Assembly (NCBI GenBank): GCA_947494155.1
Contig: CANLTW010000014.1
Coordinates: forward strand, 1 to 35,170
DNA from: Chlamydiota bacterium
GTDB lineage: Bacteria > Chlamydiota > Chlamydiia > Chlamydiales > RGXB01
DNA length: 35,170 nt
Direction: 5' to 3'
The translations under genes were made by a program, and so were the position numbers. Below are positions 3,080-18,100 of the stretch, piece after piece. Within the stretch, counting starts at the first letter, position 1. The number at the start of each line of letters is the position of its first letter. The notes under the pieces were generated by a model that did not search any database, had not been told where the DNA came from, and saw nothing but the letters and a program-made list of their open reading frames with translations.

Positions 3080-4771
3080 ATGTCGATTGGGCCAGGGGGG
3101 CACGTTGGACCTTCAGCTTTTGGGGAAAGGGAAAAAACAACTCATTCTGGAATGAATCCAAGCGAAAAAAAAATTCAATGGGTCGTGTTGGCGGCCTTTG
3201 GGGATCTTAAAGCTATTAATATTCACCTTGAAAAAGGGACTCCAATTACCAATCAAGAAAGGTCTTTGGCCATTAAAGCCGCCGCTAGGAATGGTCTTGA
3301 ACAGGTAATTGACAGGTTTTTGGCGGGTTTTGAAATGCCTGAAAAGGAAAGGATAGAAGCCATAAAAATAGCAGCGGGGCAAGGGAAAGAGGGTGCTATC
3401 GACAGGCTACTAAGGGCGTTTGAAATGCCTGAAAAGGAAAGGATAGAAGCCATAAAAATAGCAGCGGAGCACGGGCAAGAGGGTGCTGTGAATAGGCTAC
3501 TAGAGGGATTTAAAATGCCTACGTGGGGCTGTGTCTCGGCGGTAAAATTGGCTGCAGAAAATGGGAACATTAGAGTGATAGAGAGATTGCTTCAGGAAAC
3601 AACAATAAACCCAGACGATCTCTCTAACCCTATAAATTATGCTTTTCTCCACGCAACACAAAAAGGGCACAATGCTGTTGTGGGGTGGCTTCTTGAGAAG
3701 TGCCCAAATATCAACCCTTCTATTCGGGGCAGGCTAGTAACTGTAGCAGCTGAAAAAGGGCTGAGCTTGCTAATTGAAAGGCTTTTGCAAAATGGGGGAT
3801 TGACCAGCCGGGCTGCACGTGGTGGGGGAGTGATCAGCCGGGGTGTACGTGGTGAAGCTTTGAGACAAGCAGCGATACACGGGCATCTTCAGGTAATTCA
3901 AAGGCTTCTACAGGATGAGGATCAGATTTTACCCGTTTATCGCGGTCAAGCAATAGTAGCAGCGGCAGCAAATGGTCATTGCGAAGTTGTACCATGTCTT
4001 ATGCGAAATTCTAATGGCGATATCATAGATATTGAAGAAGAGCATCTTTTCAAAGCTTTAGATGCTCACAAAAATGCAAAACCGGAACAGATCTCTTACA
4101 ACATAGGGAGGCTTGGAACGGTATTTTTAGAGAATTCCAGAGCTCTTTCGGAAGATTTTATTTTGTATCTATATCAACTCATGGACGAAGAAGACGGGGT
4201 ACTAAGAATACCTATCATAACACATCTTGTCAGATACCCTCTAGATTACTTGAGGAGCTACTGCAAAAGAGGTTTTCCTGAAGTAAGGGTTGTGGACCCA
4301 AATGCAAACTTACCGAATAACTCGCACCAGATGCTTTTTAATATACTTTTTTTAAGCCTAGAAGCTCATAAACTCCTAACTGCAGGTGAGGATCCACGGT
4401 TTAATGGCCAAAAATTACCTGTTGCAAAAACTGATGAACAAAAAGAGGCATTATCTCTTTTTGGTCAACTTTTAACCTATTTGCACAAGATCTACAAAGA
4501 GAGTGGCGTTGCTATTGAAATTCCTAGCGGAATTTTCCGTAGAGATCTTTTATCTATAATAGGTAAGAGTTCTGAAAATATGCTTGAATTAACAGATTGT
4601 AGCGAAGAGATTAAGCAAATATGGAAAAGCCCACAAACTGAAGAGGAACAATCTTGGAAACAATCGGTTATCGCGGCTATTCAATGTATAGATCGAGGCA
4701 TCGGTCCGGAACTAAGACAAGCTTTAGATGGGGATAGTGCATTTTTAGGTGAAAGGTTTTTTGAAGATTAG
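3080..4771 (+). CDS. Ankyrin-repeat protein, paralog of 337..2688, with a degenerate HECT N-lobe and no catalytic C-lobe
   Basis: Ankyrin repeats; shared blocks LPVAKTDEQKEALSLFGQLL and WKQSVIAAIQCIDRGIGPELRQA. It stops at LGERFFED, where the paralog continues LGREFFGQE... into the C-lobe. RBS GAGGGA. Confidence 0.85.
   Translation: MSIGPGGHVGPSAFGEREKTTHSGMNPSEKKIQWVVLAAFGDLKAINIHLEKGTPITNQERSLAIKAAARNGLEQVIDRFLAGFEMPEKERIEAIKIAAGQGKEGAIDRLLRAFEMPEKERIEAIKIAAEHGQEGAVNRLLEGFKMPTWGCVSAVKLAAENGNIRVIERLLQETTINPDDLSNPINYAFLHATQKGHNAVVGWLLEKCPNINPSIRGRLVTVAAEKGLSLLIERLLQNGGLTSRAARGGGVISRGVRGEALRQAAIHGHLQVIQRLLQDEDQILPVYRGQAIVAAAANGHCEVVPCLMRNSNGDIIDIEEEHLFKALDAHKNAKPEQISYNIGRLGTVFLENSRALSEDFILYLYQLMDEEDGVLRIPIITHLVRYPLDYLRSYCKRGFPEVRVVDPNANLPNNSHQMLFNILFLSLEAHKLLTAGEDPRFNGQKLPVAKTDEQKEALSLFGQLLTYLHKIYKESGVAIEIPSGIFRRDLLSIIGKSSENMLELTDCSEEIKQIWKSPQTEEEQSWKQSVIAAIQCIDRGIGPELRQALDGDSAFLGERFFED
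3329..3467 (+). repeat. 90-bp-period tandem duplication inside the ankyrin array
   Basis: 3329-3377 is identical to 3419-3467 (49 bp; FEMPEKERIEAIKIAA twice). Confidence 0.9.
3794..3853 (+). repeat. 30-bp tandem duplication (GGLTSRAARG / GGVISRGVRG)
   Basis: Two adjacent near-identical 30-mers. Confidence 0.75.
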
Positions 4772-4798
4772 CACGCAAAGAATAAAGGAACTATTTAT

Positions 4799-4911
4799 AT
4801 GCAAAATAACACTGGTTATAACATGCAAAAGAAACCAAAAAAAATGATGCAAAGAAAACTGTTGGCAACAAGAAAGTTTTGGGAGGTTTTTTTGGGACAT
4901 TGGATTATTGA
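4799..4911 (+). pseudogene. Lys-rich double-glycine-leader peptide, frameshifted at an A8 run (restored: MQNNTGYNMQKKPKKNDAKKTVGNKKVLGG-FFGTLDY*)
   Basis: RBS AAGGA before ATG 4799. Adding one A to the run at 4837-4844 gives a KKVLGG motif like neighbouring small ORFs. As read, the frame continues to 4954 (51 aa). Confidence 0.45.
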
Positions 4912-4956
4912 CATTTTTATAAATAAATATATATACAGAGGAGAAGGAGTATAAGT

Positions 4957-5067
4957 ATGAAAAAACTTCCAAAGGGAAAGAAATTGTCCAAAAAGAAAAA
5001 AGTTGTAAAAGGTGGGAAATCACCTGGTAAGATGGGGAAGCCGGGCCAATGTATCTTTACTTACTAA
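4957..5067 (+). CDS. 36-aa Lys-rich peptide with double-glycine (bacteriocin-type) leader: MKKLPKGKKLSKKKKVVKGG-KSPGKMGKPGQCIFTY
   Basis: Strong RBS (GAGGAGAAGGAG) and TTGACA at 4908-4913; KKLSK....VKGG resembles the GG-leader consensus; below the ORF-track cutoff. Confidence 0.65.
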   Translation: MKKLPKGKKLSKKKKVVKGGKSPGKMGKPGQCIFTY

Positions 5068-5541
5068 TTAGCCGGAAAAGTTCCAGTATTGATCAATTGG
5101 AATACCGGTTATGCGAGCACAGATGAATTGATACGAATGCTCTCTATAAAATCGCTATTCACATCGCGAGGAATTTCTTGATCATGAACCTCATTTTGAG
5201 TCGGGCGGTATCGAACCTTTGCTATTTATTATAGAGGATTTTTATGCAGACTTTTGGCCCCCAAATCCACAAGCTCTATTTTGAGCCATTTTGGGTTAGA
5301 CGGTTTGTCCGAGGATGTGAACGCTCTTGTGCTGTGTAAATGTAGTAGCGAACACCTACCAAAATTTATTCCGCTTTTTGGTTTCAACTAATCTGAATAT
5401 TTTGCATAAGGCCCATTATCAGACGTTGAAAGGGCGAGAAAAAGGGGGTAAATTAGAAAAAAAAGGTGTTGCCATACCCCCCAACTACAATCAATCGATT
5501 ATAGAGCAAAAGAAAGAGTTTTTCATTTAAAAAGCGCTTTT

Positions 5542-6708
5542 TTAGTCTTTTAGAAGCTCTTGAGCGACAAGATCTAGCTTATCTTTGTTCCTCTCAAGGA
5601 TTTTTTGTGCAAATAGATCTATTTTATTCATATTTTTGGTGGAAAAATCTAAAGGATCGATGTTAAGCCATTTATTGTCCTCTTTTACTCCAATAGTTAC
5701 CAGGGTATCGAAGGCATAGACATTATTTTTCGTGAGAATCTCGATATAATCTCCAATTAGCTCACTTCTCCCCTCAGTTATCATAGTGCCTAATTCATCA
5801 ATTCCAGCAATCTTTCCTACGTAATAGGGAAAATTGGGATTCTCTTTGGTCATTTTTGGGATTAAGGAGATGTGCGTAACGAGCAACTTTTTACCGGGAT
5901 ACTGAGCTGAAGTTGTCAAAATTATGGATAATAGTGGGTTATCTATGATAACAGCTGCATCTGCTACAAGTTGGGGTTCGCCTCCCGATTTTAAAACTAA
6001 TTTATTTGCAGGAGAAATTCCATACGGTGATGTTGTTCCCCCAATAAACTGATAACCTACCGGGTTAACGCTACGAAAGTTAGATCTCCTATTGTTTGCT
6101 AAAATGACTTCATTCGAGTTGAGATTGTACCCATAAATTATGATATGATTCAGACATTCGCTCAGAAGGAAGTCCCCTGTTAACTGTCTAAGCTGCTCGA
6201 TAAAATCCTGATTTTCTATCATTGGCAAAAACAGCCCAAAACCCGATAGAATTTTATGTGAATAACTGGATTGAAGTGTTTCTGAGGTTATCTTTTTAAA
6301 TATGGGAATGAGTTTTTCAGCACTATATTTAGGGCCCTTCTCACCAGGAATAGACAGAGCAAAAGCTAAAAGCGATCCAACAGAGGTTCCCCCAATTACG
6401 TCGTAAAGATCAGAGATCGACTTTTTAGTTTTCTGTTCTAGATACTCCATAACACGCAGAGCATAAAGACCTTTAGCCCCTCCCCCATCAATAACCAAAA
6501 GGTGGATACTGTCTTTTTCAGTTTTACGAACAGCAGGAAGCTCTTGATCCTTATTTTCAAAGATCTTTTGAGCAATCATCTTCTCTTTTTGAAAGAATGT
6601 CTCATAAGAGGATATGCGATTGTTTTTATAGATATAAAAAGTAACAGTACAACCCGTTAATAGAAGGAAAAAAACAAAAAAAAGGCGAACTAAAATTTTT
6701 ATTCTCAT
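5542..6708 (-). CDS. Patatin-like phospholipase with N-terminal membrane anchor (copy 1)
   Basis: DGGGAKG, GTSVG and ADAA motifs. Start moved from GTG 6825 to ATG 6708 (MRIKILVRL...), giving 388 aa like its paralogs. Confidence 0.9.
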   Translation of the reverse strand: MRIKILVRLFFVFFLLLTGCTVTFYIYKNNRISSYETFFQKEKMIAQKIFENKDQELPAVRKTEKDSIHLLVIDGGGAKGLYALRVMEYLEQKTKKSISDLYDVIGGTSVGSLLAFALSIPGEKGPKYSAEKLIPIFKKITSETLQSSYSHKILSGFGLFLPMIENQDFIEQLRQLTGDFLLSECLNHIIIYGYNLNSNEVILANNRRSNFRSVNPVGYQFIGGTTSPYGISPANKLVLKSGGEPQLVADAAVIIDNPLLSIILTTSAQYPGKKLLVTHISLIPKMTKENPNFPYYVGKIAGIDELGTMITEGRSELIGDYIEILTKNNVYAFDTLVTIGVKEDNKWLNIDPLDFSTKNMNKIDLFAQKILERNKDKLDLVAQELLKD

Positions 6709-6844
6709 AGAATCCGGATAAGCCAAAAGCAACAAAACTATCAAGTTAAATTGGATGAAACCAGTGATCGATCTTAGTTTGTAAAAACCTAATATTGAAA
6801 AAAAGTAAATATTTATCTTATTCACAGTTTAAAAGGTGAAGGAT

Positions 6845-7072
6845 ATGAAAAAGCAACCAAAACAAAAAAAAGATCAATTCTTAGAGGCTAGTACAAAATC
6901 TAAACGCAATAAAATTAGGGGGGGGTTCTCAGAACCCGATTCTCTAGATATAGTTGAAATTGGAATAGCTCATTTTGACGAGGGAAAATCTAGAGCTGCA
7001 GTAAAAGAAGAGTTTTCATGGGCAGATCCGGCTGACATAGATCAAATCTTAGATAGAGGACCACCGAAATAA
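6845..7072 (+). CDS. 75-aa peptide with Lys-rich double-glycine leader (MKKQPKQKKDQFLEASTKSKRNKIRGG-) and acidic core
   Basis: RBS AAGGTGAAGGA before ATG 6845; the RGG codons contain a G8 run (6918-6925); basic leader and acidic core. Confidence 0.65.
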   Translation: MKKQPKQKKDQFLEASTKSKRNKIRGGFSEPDSLDIVEIGIAHFDEGKSRAAVKEEFSWADPADIDQILDRGPPK

Positions 7073-7537
7073 TCCTCGTGGCTAGTACTAAATCCTAAGG
7101 CAAAAACACGAAAAACTTCCAGTGGTAAAAGGAAAGATAATAGGGAGGTATAGGAATTTCTTCTTCGCTTAGTTAGTGTTCCATTCTGTTCATCAGAGGC
7201 TTAACCCATCCACCTTAGATAGTTGATTGTTTATGTTGAAAATTATAAATAATTATTGTATTTGGAATTAAAGGTGAGGAATATGAAAAACCAGAAAAAA
7301 AATGAAATAAATCCTCAAAAGTTACTACTAAAACCCCTTTTAAAAACTCAAAGAGTTCTAGGGGAAAATTTGATCCATATGATTGCTGTTGGACTGCAGC
7401 TGACAAAGAAATGATCTTGACAAGGAAATGATAAAGAAATTTACTAGGCGTTGACGAAAGGTTTACCGGATTTGGCATTTCTTTTTGATTAGGTATGACA
7501 ATATTGGTTCGATACGGGCTAGTACTAAATCTAAACG
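6887..7537 (+). repeat. Three dispersed copies of a ~20-bp motif GCTAGTAC(A/T)AAATC(T/C)(A/T)AA(C/G)G at 6887, 7081 and 7518
   Basis: 6887-6906 vs 7518-7537 match 19/20; the 7081 copy shares its first 14 nt with 7518; encodes ASTKS of the leader. Confidence 0.75.
7283..7431 (+). pseudogene. Lys-rich double-glycine-leader peptide, frameshifted at a G4 run (restored: MKNQKKNEINPQKLLLKPLLKTQRVLGG-KFDPYDCCWTAADKEMILTRK*)
   Basis: Upstream AAAGGTGAGGAATATGAAAAA closely mirrors AAAGGTGAAGGATATGAAAAA of 6845. Adding one G at 7361-7364 restores GG and a tail resembling WADPADIDQILDR. As read: 43 aa ending at 7414. Confidence 0.5.
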
Positions 7538-7613
7538 GTAAAAAAAAGGGGGGATGCCTGGTAGTATCCCCTCACGGCAAAAAAACAGTATAATGTTCAT
7601 CGTTCAAAATTAG
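7518..7613 (+). pseudogene. Remnant of a GG-leader peptide gene (ASTKSKR*KKGG-MPGSIPSRQKNSIMFIVQN*)
   Basis: Nucleotide similarity to 6887-6925 with an in-frame TAA. Confidence 0.4.
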
Positions 7614-7678
7614 CCATTTGGTATTCATGCTCTGATTGCCCAGATTGTTATGAATAATAATTGTGTCAAAAACAGTGA

Positions 7679-8848
7679 TCAATCTTTGAGCAGTTCTTCA
7701 GCTATTGTATCTAAAGTTTCCTTGTTTTGATGTAAAAATAACTTCGCATATTCAAGAACGTTATCAAAATTTTGGTCTGAAAAATCAAAAGGATAGACGT
7801 TCATCCAATCCATATTTTGGTTTATACCAATCTCTGTTAATTGATCAAATCTATAAACATCCTTTAGAGATTGCATAAATTCGCGAATTAACTGATTTTC
7901 TGCAGTATGGATCAGAGGGGGGGTTATGCCTCCGGCTTCAATAGAACCAGAGTAAAACGGAAAATCTACTCTATCCGGTGTTTGTTTTGGATGCATTACA
8001 ATATAAGTAATTAAAAATTTTTTTCCTGGATACATTTTCTGAAGGTCAATAATACTTGATACCACAGGATTAATGACGACAATCCCTGCATCTCCAATAA
8101 ATTCAGGGTTTTTTAATGGATTTAAGAGAATTTTATTTGGAGGAATTATACCAAAAAAAGCAGTCGTTCCACCTAAAAGCTGATAAAGGAGCGGATTAGC
8201 CAATTTTAGATCAGCTCCTCTGTTGTGAAAAGCTGTAAGCGTAGTTGTACTGAAATTATATCCATAAAGCACAAGGTGATTAAGCGCTTTACTGAATGGG
8301 ATGTTTCCGCATGTCGATTTTAGCAACTGAATGAATTTTTGGTTATTAACTATAGCAGACAAAAGGCCGTATCCGGATAAAAACTTTTGTTTAAAACTGG
8401 GTTCCAATGATTTTACAGCTATAGGTAATAGAGTTACTAAATCCTCTGCCGTAAATTTTGGTTTAATCTCCCCAGGAATAGACAGAAGACTCGTAATCAC
8501 GGAACCAATTGAAGTCCCTCCCAGAACATCATAAAGTTCAGATATAGGTTTGCCAGTTTTTTTTTCCAAATATTCCAAAAGTACAACAGGGTATACCCCT
8601 TTTATCCCACCCCCCTCAATAATAAGAACCTTAATCCTTTCTTGTTTGAGATTTACCTCTGGGTTTGGTTCATTCATCAAAGGTTTTAAAACATCAAGCG
8701 CTATTTTCTCTTCATCTTTATAAAAGTTTTCGTATGAAGCTATCTCTTTAATCTTATAGATATGATTTGCGAGAAAATAAGATCCAATCATTAGTCCGAT
8801 AAATAAAAGAATAAACACCTTTATTTTTAAAAACTGGTAAATACCCAT
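7679..8848 (-). CDS. Patatin-like phospholipase with N-terminal membrane anchor (copy 2)
   Basis: EGGGIKG, GTSIG and GDAG motifs; hydrophobic N-terminal segment. Confidence 0.9.
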   Translation of the reverse strand: MGIYQFLKIKVFILLFIGLMIGSYFLANHIYKIKEIASYENFYKDEEKIALDVLKPLMNEPNPEVNLKQERIKVLIIEGGGIKGVYPVVLLEYLEKKTGKPISELYDVLGGTSIGSVITSLLSIPGEIKPKFTAEDLVTLLPIAVKSLEPSFKQKFLSGYGLLSAIVNNQKFIQLLKSTCGNIPFSKALNHLVLYGYNFSTTTLTAFHNRGADLKLANPLLYQLLGGTTAFFGIIPPNKILLNPLKNPEFIGDAGIVVINPVVSSIIDLQKMYPGKKFLITYIVMHPKQTPDRVDFPFYSGSIEAGGITPPLIHTAENQLIREFMQSLKDVYRFDQLTEIGINQNMDWMNVYPFDFSDQNFDNVLEYAKLFLHQNKETLDTIAEELLKD

Positions 8849-9027
8849 TTCGCCTTCATTTGGTTAGGTTACTTTTTTCAGAGCAATCCTTTTTATTGAA
8901 TCTAACCTACAAGTTTTAACACACCAGAAAGGTAATACCCGGGTAGAGACATAAAAATGAGCTCTGATATACATCCAATAAATTATGTAAAGAAAAATAG
9001 CAAAGAAAACTTTAAAAAGAAACGTGA

Positions 9028-10200
9028 TCAATCTTTGAGCAGTTCATCCACAATAGAATCCAAAGCGTCTTTATTTTCATGTAAGATGAGCTTGGAGAAA
9101 TCATCAATTTTTGTTATGTTTTTTTCTGAATAATCAAAACTGTGGATATTGCTCCACTCGATATTTTGTTCTAAACCGATTTCTAACAGCAAATCAAACT
9201 TATAGACACTAGCTAAGGACTTCATGTATTCCCTTACCAGCTGATTTTGAGCCGTTTTTATAAGCGGTATAAACAACCCTTCAGCTTTTATCCAACCAGA
9301 GTAGAAGGGGAAATTTATTGTATCCGGCATTTCTTTTGGTGCAATAACAATGTAATTTATCAAAAACTTTTTATTTGGATACATTTTCACTAGCTCAATC
9401 ATCAAAGGTCCAAGGGGATTATTGAGTACGAGCGCAGCGTCACCGATAAATTGAGGAGAATAGAGAGGGCTTAAAAGAATTTTATTTGGTGGAGATACTC
9501 CAAAAAAAGAGGTTGCCCCACCAACAAGTTGATAAAGTAGCGGATCGGCGGCTTCTAGTTTATTTCCCCTGCTATGAAATGCATCGATTGTTGTAGTGCT
9601 AAAGTTGTATCCAAATAGCACCAAATGATTGAGTGTTTTGCTTAACGGGGTATCCCCATAATACGATTGGAGTGACTTGATAAACTTTTGATTGTTTATT
9701 TTTGGAGAGAAAAGGCCGTAACCACTTAAAAAATTTTGCTTCCAATCGGGTTGTAGGGTTTTTTGAGCAAGATTTGGAAAAATAGTAACAAGATCTTCTG
9801 CGGAGTATTTTGGTTTACCTTTTTCTCCAAGAGATAAAAGACTTACTATCATAGAACCAATCGAAGTTCCCCCCATCACATCGTAGAGCTCGGAAATTGG
9901 TTTGCCTGTTTTCTTTTCTAGGTAATCAAGAACTCTGAGCGCGTAAAGACCTTTTGCCCCTCCCCCCTCGATAACTAAAACTTTTATCCTCTCCTGGTTC
10001 AGGTTTACCTCTGGATTAGGTTCACTCCAAAGGGGTTTCAAAATATCAAGCGCTATTTTTTCTTCGTTTTTGTAAAAGGTTTCAAAAGAGGATATTTCTT
10101 TGTTTTGATAGATTCGGTGCAATAAAACATAAGAACCAATAACAAGCCCTATAAAGAGAAGAACTAAAATTTTTACTTTAAAAAACTGATAAATGGTCAT
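9028..10200 (-). CDS. Patatin-like phospholipase with N-terminal membrane anchor (copy 3)
   Basis: EGGGAKG, GTSIG and GDAA motifs. Confidence 0.9.
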   Translation of the reverse strand: MTIYQFFKVKILVLLFIGLVIGSYVLLHRIYQNKEISSFETFYKNEEKIALDILKPLWSEPNPEVNLNQERIKVLVIEGGGAKGLYALRVLDYLEKKTGKPISELYDVMGGTSIGSMIVSLLSLGEKGKPKYSAEDLVTIFPNLAQKTLQPDWKQNFLSGYGLFSPKINNQKFIKSLQSYYGDTPLSKTLNHLVLFGYNFSTTTIDAFHSRGNKLEAADPLLYQLVGGATSFFGVSPPNKILLSPLYSPQFIGDAALVLNNPLGPLMIELVKMYPNKKFLINYIVIAPKEMPDTINFPFYSGWIKAEGLFIPLIKTAQNQLVREYMKSLASVYKFDLLLEIGLEQNIEWSNIHSFDYSEKNITKIDDFSKLILHENKDALDSIVDELLKD

Positions 10201-10316
10201 AATTTTTTCGCCCTAATAGGTATAAGTTCGCAGATCATAGGTTATTAAATAGCTCATATTTACTGGTAAAACAGATAAAATTTAAACTGTCAAATCAAAA
10301 TTTTCAAACTTCAAAA

Positions 10317-11489
10317 TCACTGTTTAAGCAGCTCAATAGCTAGTGAGTCCAAAGCTTCTTTATTTTCACGTAAAATAAGCTTAGAGAAATCGTCAATTTT
10401 CTCTATGTTTTTTTCTGAAAAATCAAAAGAATTGATCTCCCGCCACTCCATATTTTGTTTTAAACCGATTTCAAATAATAAATCAAACTTGTAGACACTG
10501 GATAAACTTTGCATGGACTTTCGAATCAGCTGATTTTGTGCTACTCCTGTAAGGGATCCATACATTCTCTCAGCTTTAAGTTTGCCTAAATTGAAGGGAA
10601 AATTGACAGTATCTGGATATTGTTTAGTTTCCATAACAATATAGGTAACCAAAAACTTTTTATCCGGATACATTTTTAAAAGATCAATCATTACTGTTTC
10701 AACAGGATTATTGAGAACCAAAGCAGCATCTCCAATAAACTGGGGCGAATAGAGAGGACTTAGCAAAACTTTATTCGGAGGAAAAAGGCCAAAAAAAGAG
10801 ATCGTCCCTCCAATAAGCTGATAGAGAAGCGGATCGGCTGTTTCTAAACTATTTCCTCGGCTGTGGAATGCCTGAATTTTTGATGTGCTAAAGTTTAAAC
10901 CATAAAGAACTAAATGATTGAGTGTTTTGCTCGTAGGGATATCCCCATAGATGGATCGGAGTAAGTCGATATATTCTTGGGTGTTAATCAATGGTGAAAA
11001 AAGGCCAAAACCAGATAAGAGTACTTGTTTCCAAGAAGGATATAAAGCTTTCTGAGCGAGTTTTGGAAAAATTTTAATAAAATATTCTGCTGAGTATTTT
11101 GGTTTGCCTTTTTCCTCAGTAGATAGAGCGCTTACTATAAAAGAACCAATCGAAGTTCCCCCCATGACATCATAAAGCTCAGATATTGGTTTACCTGTTT
11201 TTTTTTCTAAATAATCAAGAATTCTTACAGCGTATAAACCTTTTGCTGCTCCCCCTTCAATAACTAAAACATTTATCCTTTCCTTATTGAGATTTACCTC
11301 CGGATTGGGTTCATGCCAAATGGGTTTTAAAACATCGAGCGCTATTTTCTCTTCATTTTTGTAAAAGTTTTCGTAAGAGGCTATTTCTTTACTCTTAAAA
11401 ATCTGATGGGCTAGTGTAAAGCAACCGGCCAATGCACCTATTAAAACTAGTAAAAAAATATAGACTTTGAAAGTTTTGCGAATTTCCAT
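10317..11489 (-). CDS. Patatin-like phospholipase with N-terminal membrane anchor (copy 4)
   Basis: EGGAAKG (one oxyanion-loop Gly replaced), GTSIG and GDAA motifs; ATG 11489 preferred over TTG 11513 by paralog length. Confidence 0.9.
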   Translation of the reverse strand: MEIRKTFKVYIFLLVLIGALAGCFTLAHQIFKSKEIASYENFYKNEEKIALDVLKPIWHEPNPEVNLNKERINVLVIEGGAAKGLYAVRILDYLEKKTGKPISELYDVMGGTSIGSFIVSALSTEEKGKPKYSAEYFIKIFPKLAQKALYPSWKQVLLSGFGLFSPLINTQEYIDLLRSIYGDIPTSKTLNHLVLYGLNFSTSKIQAFHSRGNSLETADPLLYQLIGGTISFFGLFPPNKVLLSPLYSPQFIGDAALVLNNPVETVMIDLLKMYPDKKFLVTYIVMETKQYPDTVNFPFNLGKLKAERMYGSLTGVAQNQLIRKSMQSLSSVYKFDLLFEIGLKQNMEWREINSFDFSEKNIEKIDDFSKLILRENKEALDSLAIELLKQ

Positions 11490-11544
11490 CAAAAAATTTA
11501 CCTTTTTTTGCAAAACATGCTAACTAATCGCTTAAAGGTGATCA

Positions 11545-12711
11545 TTAGTCTTTCAAAAGCTCCGACGCTACAGCATCCAAAGCCTCTTTGTTCACATTAA
11601 GGATATGTCTTGCAAATTTGTCAATTTTTTTAAGATTTCTCTCTGAGAAATCAAGAGAGTCGATATTGCTCCATTCGTTATTTTGGTTGATTCCTACTTC
11701 AAGAAGGTTGTCAAACTTATAGATAGTTGTTTTTGATAAAATATCTATCCAATGACGAATCAACTGATTTCTTGCCTCACCTATGAACGTTCGAAGGTAT
11801 TTAAGAGCTATGGCACTCCCTTCAAAATAATTGAAATCGGTAGTGTATTCCAGCTCTTTAGGACTTAGGGTGATATGGGTAATTAAAAGCTTTTTATTTG
11901 GATAGATTTTTGAGACCTCCAAAATAATCGCAAAAAGGGGGCTATTAAGTACAAGCGCGGCATCGCCAACAAATTGTGGATTATGCTCATAATTAAAAAT
12001 CAATCTATTTGGCGGAGCGAAACCCCAAGGGGAGGTGGTCCCTCCAATAAGCTGATAAAGGAGCGGATCTGCGTAATTTAGAGGCGATCCCCTGTTATCA
12101 AAAGCGATTAATTGATTAGAATTGTAGTTAAAGCCGTAAAGGATTAAATGATTCAAAGTTTCGCTTAGACGGATATGACCGTAGACCTCTTCGAGCTTTT
12201 GGATATATTTCTGGTTATTCAATATGGGGGATAAAATACCAAAACCGGTCAAAATTTTTCGACCTAAGCTTGGATCTAATGTGGTGTGTGCTACTTTAGA
12301 AAAAACATCCAGGATTTCCCTTGCTGTGAACTTAGGTTTTCCATCTTGGGGAGTGGATAAAAGGCTAACCAGTAATGACCCGATCGAGGTTCCCCCCATG
12401 ACATCATAAAGTTCTGAAATGGGTTTACCTGTCTTTTTTTCTAAATAATTAAGAATTCTTAGAGCATAAAGTCCTTTAGCCCCTCCCCCCTCTACAACCA
12501 AAACCTTAATTCTTTCCTGTTTCAAATTTGGCTCAATAGTGTTTGAAACAAAAGTGGAGCCGATGATTTCTCGTGCGGTTTTTTCCTCTTTTTGATAGAA
12601 AACCTCATAAGATTCTATTTCGCGCTTCTTAAAAAAAAAGTGCGCTATAGCGTAGGTTCCCAAAATAAACACTAATGTAAGAGAAGTTATTATTGTCTTG
12701 ATCCATTTCAT
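11545..12711 (-). CDS. Patatin-like phospholipase with N-terminal membrane anchor (copy 5)
   Basis: EGGGAKG, GTSIG and GDAA motifs. Confidence 0.9.
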   Translation of the reverse strand: MKWIKTIITSLTLVFILGTYAIAHFFFKKREIESYEVFYQKEEKTAREIIGSTFVSNTIEPNLKQERIKVLVVEGGGAKGLYALRILNYLEKKTGKPISELYDVMGGTSIGSLLVSLLSTPQDGKPKFTAREILDVFSKVAHTTLDPSLGRKILTGFGILSPILNNQKYIQKLEEVYGHIRLSETLNHLILYGFNYNSNQLIAFDNRGSPLNYADPLLYQLIGGTTSPWGFAPPNRLIFNYEHNPQFVGDAALVLNSPLFAIILEVSKIYPNKKLLITHITLSPKELEYTTDFNYFEGSAIALKYLRTFIGEARNQLIRHWIDILSKTTIYKFDNLLEVGINQNNEWSNIDSLDFSERNLKKIDKFARHILNVNKEALDAVASELLKD

Positions 12712-12905
12712 AAACTTATAAAATTAAAAAAAATGCAATATGTCAATAAAAAATTGGGATATTTTTGTTTGAACCACCCCCTTTTTTCTCAATAAAAAGA
12801 ATCCTGTAATGTTCAAGACGACTTGAGGGAGCGTTTAAGCGCAATTCTAGTCAAAAATTTTGAAAAGGTTTATACTTTTTTGAAAATAGATTAATCGGTA
12901 TATTC

Positions 12906-13646
12906 ATGAAACTTTTTTTCAAACCTGTTTTTTGGGGATGTTTGTCCACTTTTGTTTTTCCAGTTTGGGGTGTTTTGAGCGGAAATTATGAGGAACAGGT
13001 AGAAAAAGGGGGAACAGTTTATATCGGTGTCCTGGGTGGGCCTGCCGCTTTTGACGGAAGATATACTGCTCAGCAAGGTGTGAATACAGTAGCATTTGAT
13101 GCCGGAAGCACCTCGGGAATCATAGGGGGAAGTTTGGGAGTCGATGCCCGATTTGGGGTGGGGTACGCTGCGATCGAAGGGAATATAGCCTATGACACCT
13201 TAGATCAAATGATAGGATTACTGACAAGTTCGATCGGTATTCCGAATCACGTAATCAAGGCTAAAAACTCTCTCATAGGAGGGGCTTTGGTGAAACTAGG
13301 TTTTTTTGCTGACGAAGCTGCAATTTACGGCTTGGCAGGCTTTTCGGCAGGCCGCTGGACTTTAGGTCTAGAAAACGATTCTGCTCTCTCCTATTCAAGG
13401 GGGATCCAACCGCAATCCAGCCTTTATTTTAATCAGATTCACGCAGGGCCAAAAGTGGGTGCTGGCGCCCGTTTCCCTATCCAATGGGATTGGTTGATTT
13501 TTGATATGCAGTACTCCTACAACTGGTATGGGGATCTTACGGTGAATTTGCGCGATTTAGGGACTGATACCGTATGGTCTCATACGCTGCGCAATAACCA
13601 GCACATGTTCCTGTTTTCTTTAAACTTTGCCTTTTGGGATTTTTGA
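12906..13646 (+). CDS. Outer membrane beta-barrel protein (probably small, 8-stranded OMP_b-brl type)
   Basis: N-terminal signal peptide, Gly/aromatic amphipathic strands (VYIGVLGG, AIYGLAGFS, PKVGAGARF), terminal Phe. Confidence 0.75.
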   Translation: MKLFFKPVFWGCLSTFVFPVWGVLSGNYEEQVEKGGTVYIGVLGGPAAFDGRYTAQQGVNTVAFDAGSTSGIIGGSLGVDARFGVGYAAIEGNIAYDTLDQMIGLLTSSIGIPNHVIKAKNSLIGGALVKLGFFADEAAIYGLAGFSAGRWTLGLENDSALSYSRGIQPQSSLYFNQIHAGPKVGAGARFPIQWDWLIFDMQYSYNWYGDLTVNLRDLGTDTVWSHTLRNNQHMFLFSLNFAFWDF

Positions 13647-13894
13647 GGATACCTACAAAAGTCGTCAGCATCTTTTTTAGGCCTCTGTATCCTATTTTTT
13701 TAGCAAACAGCTGTGGTTTACAAGAAAATGCTTTTGGCTACCATCCTGACTGGATCCTAGGGCATAGCATTTATCAGTTGCTTTCTGTCTTTGATTTTTT
13801 TAGATTACAAAAAAACAATTCGCCTTTGTAAAAAAAAATTTTACATTACTACAGGCGTTGAATTTCTTTATAACTTAATGAAAAGGAGAGTGTT

Positions 13895-15088
13895 ATGAAA
13901 GAGAATGAACCCCATGGATCCTTTCTCTTTAGCTCTAGAACTGACCATTTCGTTTTGCCCACACAATGGGCAAGCATGAGAATTGCGAAGGAAAAAGAAA
14001 AACGCACCGGAAAACGAATTATACATTTTGAGAAGGGAGACTATCAAGGGCCAGATTTTGATACTCCCGAACACCTACTAAAAGAAACAATAAAAGCAAT
14101 TAAAGACGGTTGTGTCAGATATAATCCAGGTTCCGGAATCGATGAACTAAGACAAGCTATTGCAGACAAATATACAAAAGAAAGAAACAGACCTACCACC
14201 CCCGAAGAAGTTATTATAACAGCAGGTGCTAAACACTCACTGACTATGAATCTTCTTGCCTTTCTTGATGATGGAGATGAGGTAATATTTCCGAATCCAG
14301 GGTATCCACCTGATGAGGTATGGGCAAAATTTTCTAAAGCAGTCATAAAACACGCCCCATTAACAAAGGGTGATTGGCAATTAGATATAAAAAAACTAGA
14401 GCAACTCATCACACCAAGAACAAAATTGATCATAATCAACACTCCTCAACGACCTAATGGACAATTGGTCAACAATCTTGAAGAAATTGCTGAAATGCTA
14501 AAGAAACATCCGCATGTTATGGTTATCTCAGATGAAATATTTTCTGAAATTACCTATGGTAAGCCACATAAGAGTATTTCAATGTTTCCAGGAATGCGGG
14601 AGAGAACAATAATTATTGATACCTTTTCTAAAACCTGGGCAATGACCGGCTGGCGAATTGGGTGGACTGTAGCACCAGCTCCCGTGATTGAGAAGCTAAA
14701 TATTTTTCTTCAAGACTCTATCACAAATGTTGCGGAATTTATACAAAAAGCAGCTTATGCGGCCTTGACAGGTCCCCAAGACTGGGTGCTTCATAAAAAA
14801 GAGCTTTTACTCAAGAAAAGAAATATGATGGTAAAAGGTTTAAACCAAATTAAAGGGGTAAAATGTGACTACCCCGATGGAACATTTTATGTACTAGCCG
14901 ATATCACAGGCACAGGCTTAAACTCACAAGAATTTACCGACAGACTCTTAGAGAGAGCAAACGTGGCTGTTGTTGCAGGTACTGCGTTTGGAACAGAAGG
15001 TGAAGGATATGTTCGAATTACCTTCGCCTGTCCTGATGAAGACATTAAAGAGGGTCTCGATAGGATGAAGGCGGTTGATTTATCTTGA
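13895..15088 (+). CDS. PLP-dependent class I/II aminotransferase (AspB/AAT-like fold) with atypical active-site residues
   Basis: FSKTWAMTGWRIG (PLP Lys), TAGAKHSL, SDEIF, GTFY, GYVRITFA; RBS AAGGAG. Confidence 0.9.
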   Translation: MKENEPHGSFLFSSRTDHFVLPTQWASMRIAKEKEKRTGKRIIHFEKGDYQGPDFDTPEHLLKETIKAIKDGCVRYNPGSGIDELRQAIADKYTKERNRPTTPEEVIITAGAKHSLTMNLLAFLDDGDEVIFPNPGYPPDEVWAKFSKAVIKHAPLTKGDWQLDIKKLEQLITPRTKLIIINTPQRPNGQLVNNLEEIAEMLKKHPHVMVISDEIFSEITYGKPHKSISMFPGMRERTIIIDTFSKTWAMTGWRIGWTVAPAPVIEKLNIFLQDSITNVAEFIQKAAYAALTGPQDWVLHKKELLLKKRNMMVKGLNQIKGVKCDYPDGTFYVLADITGTGLNSQEFTDRLLERANVAVVAGTAFGTEGEGYVRITFACPDEDIKEGLDRMKAVDLS

Positions 15089-15175: not shown

Positions 15176-18100
15176 TTAGGCCGCCTTATCATACCCTTGA
15201 GCAAGTTGGAGTGCCCACTGGTACGATTCCCCTTTAAAGAAATGATCAATGGTGCTTTTTGAACGTAAAAAAACAATGTTATAACAGTGTCCGGAGCGAC
15301 TATTTTGGATTTCATGGACCGGAACTGTGATCCCTTTAATAGGCTGAGTAAAAGAGATCGTGGTTTTTTCCCGGCTGTGGTTCATCAGTATATGCATGTT
15401 GGCTCCCATACTAACCGCATCCTTGTCTGATACGAAGTTGATCACCTTTCCCCCAAAACATTTAGGGATGAGTTCTGCTGCACCAAAAGTGTGGACAATC
15501 AGTCGCTCTTTTTTTTCCTCCGGAAACTGTTCTAAGGCAAGGGCGGTATTCAGAGCCCCCTCGCTATGAGCCCAAATGCGCAGATTTCTAGCCGGATCTT
15601 CTAGTATGTTATGGGCTATTTTCTCTAGTAGATGCACCACATCCCCCTTAGCCCTTGAAATCTTGTTTTTTGCAGCTCGGTATACATCATGAAATAAAGA
15701 GATAGAGGTATTATAGACTAAAAAAACCTCTTTTTGGAGATGATTGGCCACCGTTTTAGCCGACTCTTTGGCTTCTAAAAGGGAATTTCCGACCCCATTC
15801 GTAAATAGATCGTAGGTTTGGCCATTGATTGGAGGGATGAAAAACCCATCGGGAAAGATTCTATGCACTAAAGGGTGCCACCCGTCTTGAAAAAGAGGCG
15901 CCGTGAGTTTTTTTTCATAGGGCGCTTTTTGGTTTTCTCGAAAAGCTTTTTGGGCTCTTTTATCAATGTTGGTCCGCCCTTTTTCTAAGAGTTGCCAAAA
16001 GGTTTTGGCGAGATAAGAGCCCGTGGCATATAGAGTTTTTGAAAATTCCTCAAGAGGGAATAAAACCTCCCCATTGGAATGACTTAAAAGACTATCCCAA
16101 GTAAGCTGTTTTCCCTCATAGAGATGATTTAAAAAGCTTTGGATTAACCCTGATAGATCTACATCGATTGAGTCGATAGGCGCCATGCCGGAGGGGTCTA
16201 TGAACTTTAAAGGGTTATTGTTGCAAAAGCGATGTCCATAGTGCCCAAATGTTTCCCCAAGGGGGTCTTTTGAAATAAATTGATGCATGTTTGGATCGTA
16301 ATAACGCATACCAAATACAAAAAGATCCGCTTCGGGGATATACCTTGCCTGTTTGTAAGACCAGGGGGATTGAATATTTTGAATTACTGCAGTTTTTTTT
16401 CCAAATGGGGAAAAACGGGAAAAGTGCTCCCATTTACCGCTTTTAGGATTAAAAAGTCCTACAAGGTTTTGAAAAATATCATGGCAAGACACGCAAAAGT
16501 TGTCGGTACTCTCTACCATGAGGGTATAGGCTCCTTTTTGTCCGTTTTGAGGGTAAAGTGTTCTAAACTCCAAAAGCTCTTTATTTTCTTTTCGGATAGC
16601 CCCCACCTCCTGTAGATTTTGGTAAAGGTAATCGATTGTCTCCTCTTTTCCCTTTGTAAGGATTTTTTTCTGGATCAGCCGATGCTTGAAATCATAGGAA
16701 AAAACGATTTTTTCCCCTTTAGAATCGATCTCAACTAAACGATCTAGGGCATCATAGTGAAACTCTTTAGAGCCCTGTTGGTCTTTTTGAAAAAAAAGAT
16801 TCCCTTGAGGATCGTAGTTAAAAAAGGAACCGTTACCATTTCTTATTTGGAATTTTGAGTCACTGTAGACTTTTGATTCCCCAAAAAACTCAGGCACTCC
16901 AGCCCCGTTATAAAGTATGTCGAGGGGTTCATCAGAAAATTTTTCAAGTTCATCGATACTATTGTAACTGTAGTACTGGGTATAGGTTTTAAACGGATCG
17001 ATACACCCCCTTTTTAAAGCAGACCCAAAACAGTTCTTTTTTTCGATCCTGTCGCTTCCACTGAAATCGACCTTTTTTTGGAGTCTACCATCAAGATCAT
17101 AAAAAAACTGCACAGCCCCAAGACCGAAAGGGAGTTCTATTTTTTTTAATGCATCCCCACCCTGTGTTTTATCAAAAAAAAACTCTATTTGCCCGTTTTT
17201 CGGTGTTTCTCGGGTAAGGGATTTAACCCCAAAAGAGCCTGAGGTAAAATAAAGGGAGCCAGCATCCAAAAAATGAAAAGCGCTAATTTCCAGGTTGGAG
17301 TCATACTCAATTCGTGTTAATTGCCCGGTTTCTAGCTCTTCAGCCACTACGAGGCCGATGGCATTATAAGTATAAAGAGTCGATTGCCCCGTGAGAAAAT
17401 TTCTTACTTCCGTAAGGTTTTCCATACCATCATAAAAGTACCTGTAGTCGACTGACCCATCAGAGGAAAAAACCCTCTCAATCTCGTCAAAATCGGTATA
17501 AGTAGTAAAAATAGTGGTGCCCGAGGGTTTTTTAAACGAGCTTACTCTCCCTCTTACATCGTAGGTATATTGGAAAATTTGGGGTTTGAGCGACTTGGCA
17601 TCGACCACCTTTTCTAAAAGTTTTGAGGTGCTGTCGTAGGTATATGTCAGCACCTGACTTTTTTCCCCCTCTAACGTTTGGTATATGAGCTCCTGTTCTA
17701 CAAGGTTCCCCTTAAGGTCTTTTTTGTAGTTCTCTTTTTTTATCAGTGTACCACTTGGATCATACAGACAAAAGGAGACAAGTTCATGGAAAGGGTCGAT
17801 GAAGTGGACCTCTTTGGTTTGGTTAGGAAGAATTTTGGTCCTTTTTTCTAATTTTATCCCATCAAGGGAGAGGCAATCCTCGTAAAGAAAAAGGGTCTTA
17901 TTCCCCAAAGGATCAATAAAAGCGGTCTGTCTCCCCCAAATATCAAACTCCTTTTTTGTACTTGACCACTTTCCATCTATCAAAAAGCTTACCTCGGCTA
18001 AGTCTCCTAAAGAATCATAAGAATGTTTTTTGTAGCTGAAAATGCGTTGCGCTTGATCCTCAATACGCTCCTCAAGCAAACGGTTTTTTTTATCAAAACT

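Follow-up and report, generated by a model that had tools for sequence, protein, structure and literature searches.

Whether chlamydiae export small peptides has, to our knowledge, hardly been considered: they are obligate intracellular bacteria whose known secretion biology centres on type III effectors. The question is raised by a 35,170-nucleotide stretch of a Chlamydiota genome (contig CANLTW010000014.1 of assembly GCA_947494155.1, hereafter the window), in which small open reading frames (ORFs) around a patatin gene encode a Lys-rich leader that ends in Gly-Gly (GG) and is followed by a variable core. Leaders that end in GG are cleaved by C39-peptidase ABC transporters (PCATs) in bacteriocin, pheromone and RiPP (ribosomally synthesised and post-translationally modified peptide) systems. 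We propose that the window holds four members, two intact and two recently broken, of a lineage-specific family of small precursors that is most likely exported by PCATs; recognition, cleavage, export and core function are read from sequence comparison, and on balance, by no means decisively, this is the explanation we favour.

In outline, each member starts with MKK behind a ribosome-binding site of its own and consists of a Lys-rich leader of 20–31 residues running to the GG and a short, often Cys-bearing, variable core. The leader would bring the peptide to one of two NHLP-type transport triads, the C39 domain would cleave after Gly-Gly and the core would be pumped out. One member, in an operon on contig C8, is perhaps first modified by a LanM-dehydratase-like enzyme. 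The genome, metagenome-assembled, 1.41 Mb in size and 97.6% complete, consists of 24 contigs (C1, C2 and so on), the window being C14, and the public sequencing runs that contain a stretch of it are labelled as freshwater and lake metagenomes. Origin from an uncultured chlamydia fits the ankyrin, F-box, CesT-chaperone and patatin genes present.

Two intact and two broken copies in the window

A preliminary description of this DNA had pointed to four small ORFs and a further remnant at 7518, and all were located; they are listed here together with one further leader-like unit, at 7080-7116:

4799-4911, plus strand: copy 1, broken; GG codons at 4882-4887, a 7-residue core and a stop codon at 4909-4911
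4957-5067, plus strand: copy 2, intact, 36 residues; leader 4957-5016, GG codons at 5011-5016, 16-residue core with one Cys
6845-7072, plus strand: copy 3, intact, 75 residues; leader 6845-6925, GG codons at 6920-6925 within a G8 run, acidic core of 48 residues
7080-7116, plus strand: degenerate copy of the leader stretch, 65% identical to 6886-6922, directly after the stop codon of copy 3
7283-7431, plus strand: copy 4, broken; the two-Cys core is read at 7360-7428, in a frame other than that of the ATG
7517-7575, no strand assigned: repeat unit and hairpin; 7517-7553 is an 81% copy of 6886-6922, and the hairpin spans 7548-7573

The copy 2 protein is MKKLPKGKKLSKKKKVVKGGKSPGKMGKPGQCIFTY, with the GG at residues 19-20 and GAAGGAG upstream of its start; in copy 3 the GG falls at residues 26-27. 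Neither intact member has a Pfam match, and the 75-residue ORF retrieved from a protein atlas only unnamed clusters (best score 0.77), which gave no lead. Copies 3 and 4 share 75% identity over 44 nucleotides at their starts, ribosome-binding site included. As a side observation, some family members encode Gly-Gly by a run of eight G, for example at 6918-6925 of the window.

The lesions of the broken copies were read against a syntenic metagenome contig, L070, which carries the ankyrin gene, four small ORFs and the patatin array. It was found in a second scan of metagenome contigs; a first scan of such contigs with the 75-residue ORF, and one of genome contigs with alignment A4, returned no related locus. 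All four small ORFs of L070 are intact and match the window positions (40, 47, 75 counted from the ATG, and 63 residues):

L070 3316-3438: ortholog of copy 1
L070 3484-3627: ortholog of copy 2
L070 4397-4624: ortholog of copy 3
L070 4823-5014: ortholog of copy 4

In copy 1, ATGs at 4799 and 4823 open the Lys-rich leader; the ATG frame reads MQNNTGYNMQKKPKKM... and the +1 frame carries KNDAKKTVGNKKVLGGFFGTLDY. The shift lies beside the A8 run at 4837-4844. The copy had been said to need one added A: its frame is indeed broken, but not by a single missing A, as the intact L070 relative differs by a 7-nucleotide indel at this run, besides an in-frame 3-nucleotide indel in the core. Run X2 yields a DNA contig (record 16) across 4700-5097, with no indel listed at the A8 run. 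In copy 4, the ATG at 7283 is preceded by GGTGAGGA, and the ORF in its own frame, 7283-7414, contains no GG. Compared with L070, (i) the A run after the ATG is 1 nucleotide shorter, (ii) a T>G change creates TGA in the relative's frame and (iii) 3 nucleotides are deleted. Here one added G had been thought sufficient; the break and the core frame (KFDPYDCCW...), which matches L070, hold up, but the proposed leader frame does not, L070 using another. Over 7228-7393, in the copy 4 region, the DNA contigs of X2 and X3 show no difference, and an RNA-library contig of run X17 covers 7286-7354 on the copy 4 leader.

A DNA repeat family, D1, joins 6886-6922 in the copy 3 leader with 7080-7116 (65%) and 7517-7553 (81%). 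In the 7517 unit, the apparent 'KKGG' is an A8G6 run entering the hairpin (−17.6 kcal/mol when folded on the plus strand, z −2.65). On the minus strand this hairpin is followed by a U run, CCUUUUUUUU, and therefore looks like the terminator of the patatin gene at 7679-8848. The sequence of the supposed remnant is present, but its status as a dead gene is doubtful: 7517-7575 is probably a repeat unit joined to the terminator of patatin 2, not necessarily a dead peptide gene. The segment 7517-7690 is 91.2% identical to L070. A consensus scan of 4700-7700 listed no terminators, which is not telling for the 7548-7573 hairpin because the loop limit of the scan would miss it, and 7 promoter-like sites against 8.7 expected. 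Rfam gave no match to 4600-7800 at E ≤ 1.

A lysine-rich family across the genome

A loose rule was applied in six frames (M followed by two of K, Q, R or N, at least 35% K/R, and GG at residues 9–40). It returned 21 ORFs from the genome against 3–14 (mean 6.9) from each of ten composition-preserving shuffles. Lys-rich GG ORFs thus exceed chance, a doubt that the preliminary description had itself raised. Seventeen of the 21 served as seeds, a choice that is partly judgement; the four excluded by eye were C17_8200, a nested pair of Arg-rich ORFs on C12, and C17_26036, whose sequence overlaps C17_26046 in a different frame. C18_21750 joined later through a DNA match, giving 18 intact members, which stand alone or form small clusters, on contigs C1, C7, C8, C10, C13, C14, C17 and C18.

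All 18 start with MKK and all carry the GG. Their leaders, of 20–31 residues, contain 173 Lys (41%) and no Cys in 425 residues. The cores range from 3 to 48 residues and hold 18 Cys in 339 residues; Cys occurs in 12 of the 18 cores, and two Cys in six. A Shine-Dalgarno-like 4-mer lies at −18 to −4 in 13 of 17 members, compared with 15% of plus-strand ATGs and 18% of ATGAARAAR sites, in agreement with the ribosome-binding sites noted earlier by inspection. The nominal p of this enrichment (~3e-8 to 3e-7) overstates the case because paralogs share upstream DNA. At least five members have decayed: window copies 1 and 4; C17_26238, which loses its frame at an A6 run; C10_31501, closely resembling C13_28323 but with a Gln codon replaced by TAG; and a copy on C22 with ATA at the expected ATG.

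A hidden Markov model (HMM) of the leaders scored highest on copy 3 (32.1 and 30.6 bits), itself a training member. Comparing such scores with shuffles is circular for the 17 training members; the only independent match is the 14.1 bits of the copy 1 piece after the frameshift, obtained with a model built without copy 1, and one of six shuffled genomes reached 16.9 bits. Two further matches, C5_66582 and C20_2783, were rejected as lying within real genes read in another frame (by eye, malate-dehydrogenase-like and transporter-like). Within the genus, the pattern ATGAARAARMARNCNAAR has 6 matches in this genome and the reversed control pattern none; four matches in congeners were not retained as members, having no GG. 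The family had been presumed undescribed, and the databases agree: no NCBIfam leader family matches any of 17 members at E ≤ 10, and NCBIfam as a whole gave a single irrelevant match to the 17 seeds (E 0.11).

Conserved leaders and divergent cores among relatives

Against L070, the leaders of copies 1–4 are 98.9, 95.0, 95.1 and 84.0% identical and the intergenic flanks 88.6–93.2%. The cores of copies 2–4 fall to 60.8, 57.6 and 61.4%; that of copy 1 is 87.5% identical over 24 nucleotides. In the copy 3 leader, synonymous divergence (dS) is 0.07 and nonsynonymous divergence (dN) 0.05, and four neighbouring genes have dS values of 0.05–0.065. The copy 3 core is free of indels, with dS 0.63 and dN 0.62. 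As its synonymous sites are also ten-fold up, the core looks like an old divergent allele swapped in: an allele replacement with breakpoints at the leader and the stop codon, rather than selection on recent point mutations alone. Whole cores would then be swapped by recombination at the conserved leader and the downstream flank, which would yield the ten-fold excess of both synonymous and nonsynonymous divergence, and the leader-like repeats at 7080 and 7517 may serve as recombination anchors.

Other relatives, few and close, were compared in the same way. Two 76-residue database homologs of copy 3 are 85% and 60% identical to it; 24 of the 25 leader residues before the GG are invariant, and core motifs are conserved. 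Two genomes of the genus carry orthologs: G002 those of C7_18071 (both Cys kept) and C1_17766, and G006 that of copy 2, with its GG. In all, 10 of 11 homologous copies outside this genome keep the GG, the exception having Ser-Gly, and the orthologs keep their frame. Strain-variant contigs, of low depth and from related strains in two other samples, show 3-nucleotide in-frame insertions in the copy 2 core (X2 and X3) and a different sequence upstream of 4906 (X3). In one DNA strain, copy 3 continues past the GG into a different but related core; a second RNA-library contig of X17 follows the copy 3 leader to 6918 and then reads Ser-Ser-Gly-Gly and an unrelated core. The single leader design and the hypervariable cores claimed at the outset are thus seen both between copies and between strains. 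The RNA-library contigs are only a weak hint of transcription because such libraries can contain DNA; nor are the parts of 4700-7700 without RNA-contig cover evidence of silence.

Could the copies be mostly non-functional, decaying repeats, in which A- and G-runs (the antisense of a terminator, for example) happen to read as Lys...GG and the ORFs are by-products? At least five copies are broken and three cores have 3–6 residues, the 7517 unit combines A8G6 and a terminator-like hairpin with 81% likeness to a stretch of the leader of copy 3, a gene fragment lies in the same region, as does a truncated patatin in the case of L070, the loose pattern turns up 3–14 times per shuffled genome, and dN/dS of the copy 3 core is 1.0. 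We nevertheless consider this improbable. Decaying repeats would not account for leaders that, in copies 1–3, are better conserved (95–99%) than the flanking noncoding DNA (89–93%), for indels in multiples of three within coding frames, or for the enrichment of Shine-Dalgarno-like motifs; the 75-residue member keeps its open frame and motifs at 60% identity, and all four window copies are open in L070. Taken together, these data show that the genes are real, that their design is conserved and that they form a lineage-specific family.

Two NHLP-type transport triads in the genome

No PCAT is encoded in the window, as had been remarked; a genome-wide search with PF03412 found two. They are open frames of 742–743 residues, at C8 48476-50689 and C5 59202-61424, each the middle gene of an HlyD-like / C39-ABC / second-ABC triad. 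By far the best matches of the triad proteins are TIGR03794, TIGR03796 and TIGR03797, the models of NHLP bacteriocin export. Five of the six proteins score slightly under the equivalog cut-offs (PCATs 833.0 and 808.4 against 853.3; second ABC proteins 690.9 and 700.2 against 709.4; adaptors 145.3 and 164.4 against 156.2), the C5 adaptor being above. In the C39 domain, Q30, C36, H109 and D125 are invariant in 10 chlamydial PCATs, and the C8 domain matches LahT150 (6MPZ) at E 1.5e-42. Searching the genome for canonical cargo gave one match to the NHLP leader model TIGR03793, at 12.9 bits (cut-off 50.9), and none to the Nif11 model TIGR03798. Intact PCATs are therefore present and canonical NHLP and Nif11 cargo is not found, which supports export of the Lys-rich peptides by this route. 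According to parts of Haft 2010 (PMC2887384), the triad exports GG-leader precursors whose genes are often distant and whose cores are short and hypervariable, and it is commoner than its known cargo.

One family member, C8_54941 (38 residues, with Thr-Thr and Ser in its core), heads a string made of the peptide, proteins of 156 and 187 residues, a DUF4135 protein, HlyD, PCAT and the second ABC protein. The 535-residue DUF4135 protein corresponds to the N-terminal dehydratase part of LanM without the cyclase part: it matches TIGR03897 over positions 10-271 of 932 only (208.5 bits, cut-off 304) and, in Pfam, DUF4135 only. This LanM-dehydratase-like protein and the unassigned 187- and 156-residue proteins, which occupy C8 51818-54465 (locus L003) between peptide and triad, may form an unusual RiPP tailoring set.

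Triads of other chlamydial genomes have varied neighbours. In the congener G001, a 27-residue K/R-rich ORF ending in GG and one further residue lies ~170 nucleotides upstream of a triad; its Gly-Gly falls in a G8 run, followed by a stem-loop and a T run (by eye). At this locus (L052, on contig C23 of G001), a one-base change in the G8 run would open a longer core frame; this need not mean phase switching. The triads of G016 and G013 belong to other chlamydial families. That of G016 adjoins TolC and five tandem ORFs of 201–223 residues, of which the three scanned are NHLP-leader precursors; these ORFs lie at 11654-14973 of locus L058, and one or more have two leader-like stretches. In G013, the triad adjoins TolC together with SagD/YcaO and SagB, a thiazole/oxazole-modified microcin (TOMM) cluster. 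Back in the present genome, two peptide pairs on C13 adjoin exporters of other types, at loci L008 (C13 28060-31591) and L007 (C13 224-2988). One pair stands directly downstream, on the same strand, of a major facilitator superfamily (MFS) and outer-membrane-efflux pair, and the other beside a 592-residue ABC exporter that has no peptidase domain; both may be chance.

How well the peptides suit a C39 peptidase

Several observations weigh against PCAT export. Among the 18 leaders, nine have a hydrophobic residue at −4, two at −7 and two at −12, and −7 is basic (Lys/Arg) in 11. For LahT150, the closest homolog with a solved structure, the parts of PMC6363468 that describe its processing report that Lys at −4 or −7 blocked it, that Lys at −12 likewise abolished or strongly impaired cleavage, and that most changes at −12 were harmful to it; judged by their residues, the leaders as a set thus do not present the hydrophobic −4/−7/−12 positions by which LahT150 docks its substrates. 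None of 17 members matches the bacteriocin-type, NHLP, Nif11 or Bacteroidetes GG leader models of NCBIfam at E ≤ 10. Only one of the 18 members is adjacent to a PCAT, and a hairpin with a U run separates that member, C8_54941, from the next gene. Three cores have only 3–6 residues. The L070 ortholog of copy 2 carries Ser-Gly in place of the Gly-Gly found in the window and in G006. For expression, the evidence is confined to RNA-library contigs from related strains, and such libraries may include DNA.

The distribution of the family also bears on the matter. A scan of 41 genomes with the leader HMM (E ≤ 1) found 16 places here, two in G002 and one in G006, so the family does recur outside this genome, but none in the 38 others. 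Full-length PCATs occur in this genome (G000), G001, G003 and G006; of 34 genomes from other families, four have them. Among the seven genomes of the genus, peptides and PCATs occur together in G000 and G006, as the co-occurrence anticipated by the preliminary description would have it, and the pattern is broken by three others: G002 (89% complete) has two orthologs and no full-length PCAT that we could find, and G001 and G003 have PCATs and no leader match at E ≤ 1. In the 34 genomes of other families, four of them with full-length PCATs, the leader HMM again had no match. These phyletic comparisons, limited by short, low-complexity queries and fragmented metagenome-assembled genomes, give a mixed picture, counted here among the points against export.

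The peptides might be real small proteins that are not PCAT cargo. The Lys-rich part would work by itself, in binding nucleic acid or membranes or as a nuclear-localisation-like tag within the eukaryotic host once secreted by, for example, a type III system, and the GG would be a hinge. Leaders with 41% Lys and without the hydrophobic −7 and −12 residues that C39 reads suit such a role, as do the 17 of 18 members away from any PCAT and those that lie beside CesT-type chaperone, F-box and flagellar or type III secretion-like genes; fast-evolving tails fit host-interaction proteins equally well. A hinge, however, fails to explain a GG in 18 of 18 members and conservation that ends abruptly after it. 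Moreover, the cores are enriched in Cys and the leaders have none, a distribution like that of exported disulfide or thioether peptides, and the two triads would otherwise have no recognisable cargo in the genome. We regard this alternative as unlikely, if worth keeping in mind, and retain export by PCATs as the preferred explanation.

How a C39 domain might accept such leaders is suggested by its charge. The net charge of the aligned domain is −8 for C8 and −3 for C5, compared with +6 for the NHLP-linked G016 and +3 for G014; the trend is weak because the TOMM-linked G013 domain is −5. Compared with LahT, the C8 domain has its acidic changes mostly where it aligns to LahT residues ~55–90, and the structural part of PMC6363468 places the leader of LahT150 between helices alpha1–alpha3 and the sheet. 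Judged by the alignment, this stretch may take in the helices that bind the leader. It is possible that chlamydial C39 domains read charge instead of hydrophobic residues. A complex prediction for the C8 C39 domain (residues 18-165) with the 36-residue peptide scored 0.01 and was run with no controls; it is used for neither side.

Extending this idea, one may tentatively imagine polylysine-type GG leaders as a new class of PCAT cargo in Chlamydiota, in which an acidic C39 domain reads charge, cores are exchanged like pherotype or bacteriocin alleles, and the products form an arsenal against rivals or the host. We hold this fuller scheme to be speculative. Were it true, an obligate intracellular bacterium would be deploying a diversifying peptide arsenal against co-infecting rivals or its host.

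The patatin neighbours

The small genes lie around and beside an array of five tandem, membrane-anchored patatin paralogs (5542-12711, minus strand), which the preliminary description had proposed as possible partners. The two nearest are:

5542-6825, minus strand: patatin 1, 427 residues from a GTG start (Pfam PF01734, E 3.9e-11)
7679-8848, minus strand: patatin 2, first of four further tandem paralogs (through 12711)

On such a partnership, the peptides would be substrates, regulators or acyl acceptors of the neighbouring patatins. Of the genome's seven patatin matches, five fall in the window and two on C8 (58.4–60.3 kb), and both loci lie within a few kb of a family member, C8_54941 being 3.5 kb from the C8 patatins. 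Yet for 14 of the 18 intact members the contig has no patatin match, an AcrB-type pump gene separates peptide and patatins on C8, and the peptide genes run opposite to the patatin genes. In L070, patatin 1 is cut to a 112-residue N-terminal stump and the four peptide genes are intact. A functional link of this kind appears very improbable, and the proposed partnership is not supported. Elsewhere, members neighbour a FabI-like reductase, an F-box protein, an ABC exporter, an MFS and outer-membrane efflux pair, and a CesT chaperone. The patatins look like bystanders in a rearranging, decaying spacer, and the adjacency looks incidental. Their dN/dS against L070 is 0.24–0.71 among three of the five paralogs.

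Comparison with known systems

Pherotype systems combine a conserved leader with allelic, hypervariable mature parts, which the family described here resembles, and prochlorosin-type families combine many precursors and a conserved leader with one promiscuous LanM. Many dispersed precursor genes in a small genome, a conserved leader and diverse cores are likewise found here. Unlike prochlorosins, however, the family has no full LanM and no Nif11 leader, and most cores have 0–2 Cys with no obvious Ser/Thr-Cys pairing. Combinatorial families of the prochlorosin type are mentioned in PMC2887384 and in the abstract of PMC10783134.

The NHLP/Nif11 systems, as outlined in parts of PMC2887384, are close in organisation. 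The same type of triad is present twice, paralogous precursors are scattered away from the transporter, similarity ends at the GG, cores are short, hypervariable and often contain Cys, and one locus here has a LanM-like enzyme. The differences lie in the leaders and the enzyme: leaders here have 20–31 residues and 41% Lys, whereas theirs have ~70–83 residues and nitrile-hydratase- or Nif11-related domains; nothing here matches TIGR03793 or TIGR03798 at cut-off, and the LanM-like protein is an N-terminal dehydratase only. The GG leaders of class II bacteriocins and competence pheromones (ComA, PCAT1, LahT; PMC6363468 in part) are also ~20–30 residues long and end in GG, with a hydrophobic −4 shared by half of the leaders here, and the C39 domain is a close LahT150 homolog with catalytic Cys, His and Asp. 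In contrast, their Leu(−12)...Glu(−8)-Leu(−7) becomes lysines here, changes of the kind that block LahT150, and there is no TIGR01847-type match.

Because the model matches and the hydrophobic-position test fail, the family does not belong to the NHLP, Nif11 or bacteriocin-signal classes; with no full LanM, it is not a class II lanthipeptide system either. By analogy, it would work like a GG-leader precursor family served by an NHLP-type triad, with the combinatorial pattern of RiPP and pherotype systems. Environmental Chlamydiota carry RiPP-like and proteusin clusters, according to sections of PMC9666466 and PMC13229535; Lys-rich Gly-Gly peptides were not found described in the portions covered of the chlamydial RiPP and double-glycine literature, these two papers included and supplements aside.

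If the peptides are PCAT cargo, a streamlined 1.4 Mb genome devotes about twenty genes and two transport systems to rapidly diversifying secreted peptides, which would point to competition or signalling within host cells or in the environment. GG recognition would then work with an almost purely cationic leader, a reason to widen the rules used in mining for RiPPs and bacteriocins, and one more class of cargo would be added for the NHLP-type triad, which is commoner than the cargo known for it.

Other features of the contig

The small-ORF region is preceded by two ankyrin-repeat genes, and a gene fragment outside the peptide family follows copy 2:

337-2688 and 3080-4771, plus strand: two ankyrin-repeat genes, upstream of the small-ORF region
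5068-5376, plus strand: gene fragment, 85% identical to an inner part of a 919-residue ORF on contig C2

The matching ORF lies at C2 99947-102706, minus strand, and its N-terminus is phospholipid-acyltransferase-like, by eye only. The fragment has raised depth in DNA runs, and the stretch is missing from L070. Further along the window, a 1779-residue RHS-repeat protein of polymorphic-toxin type is encoded at 15176-20515, minus strand (PF05593, E 1.5e-27), another sign of genes for inter-bacterial or host conflict on this contig.

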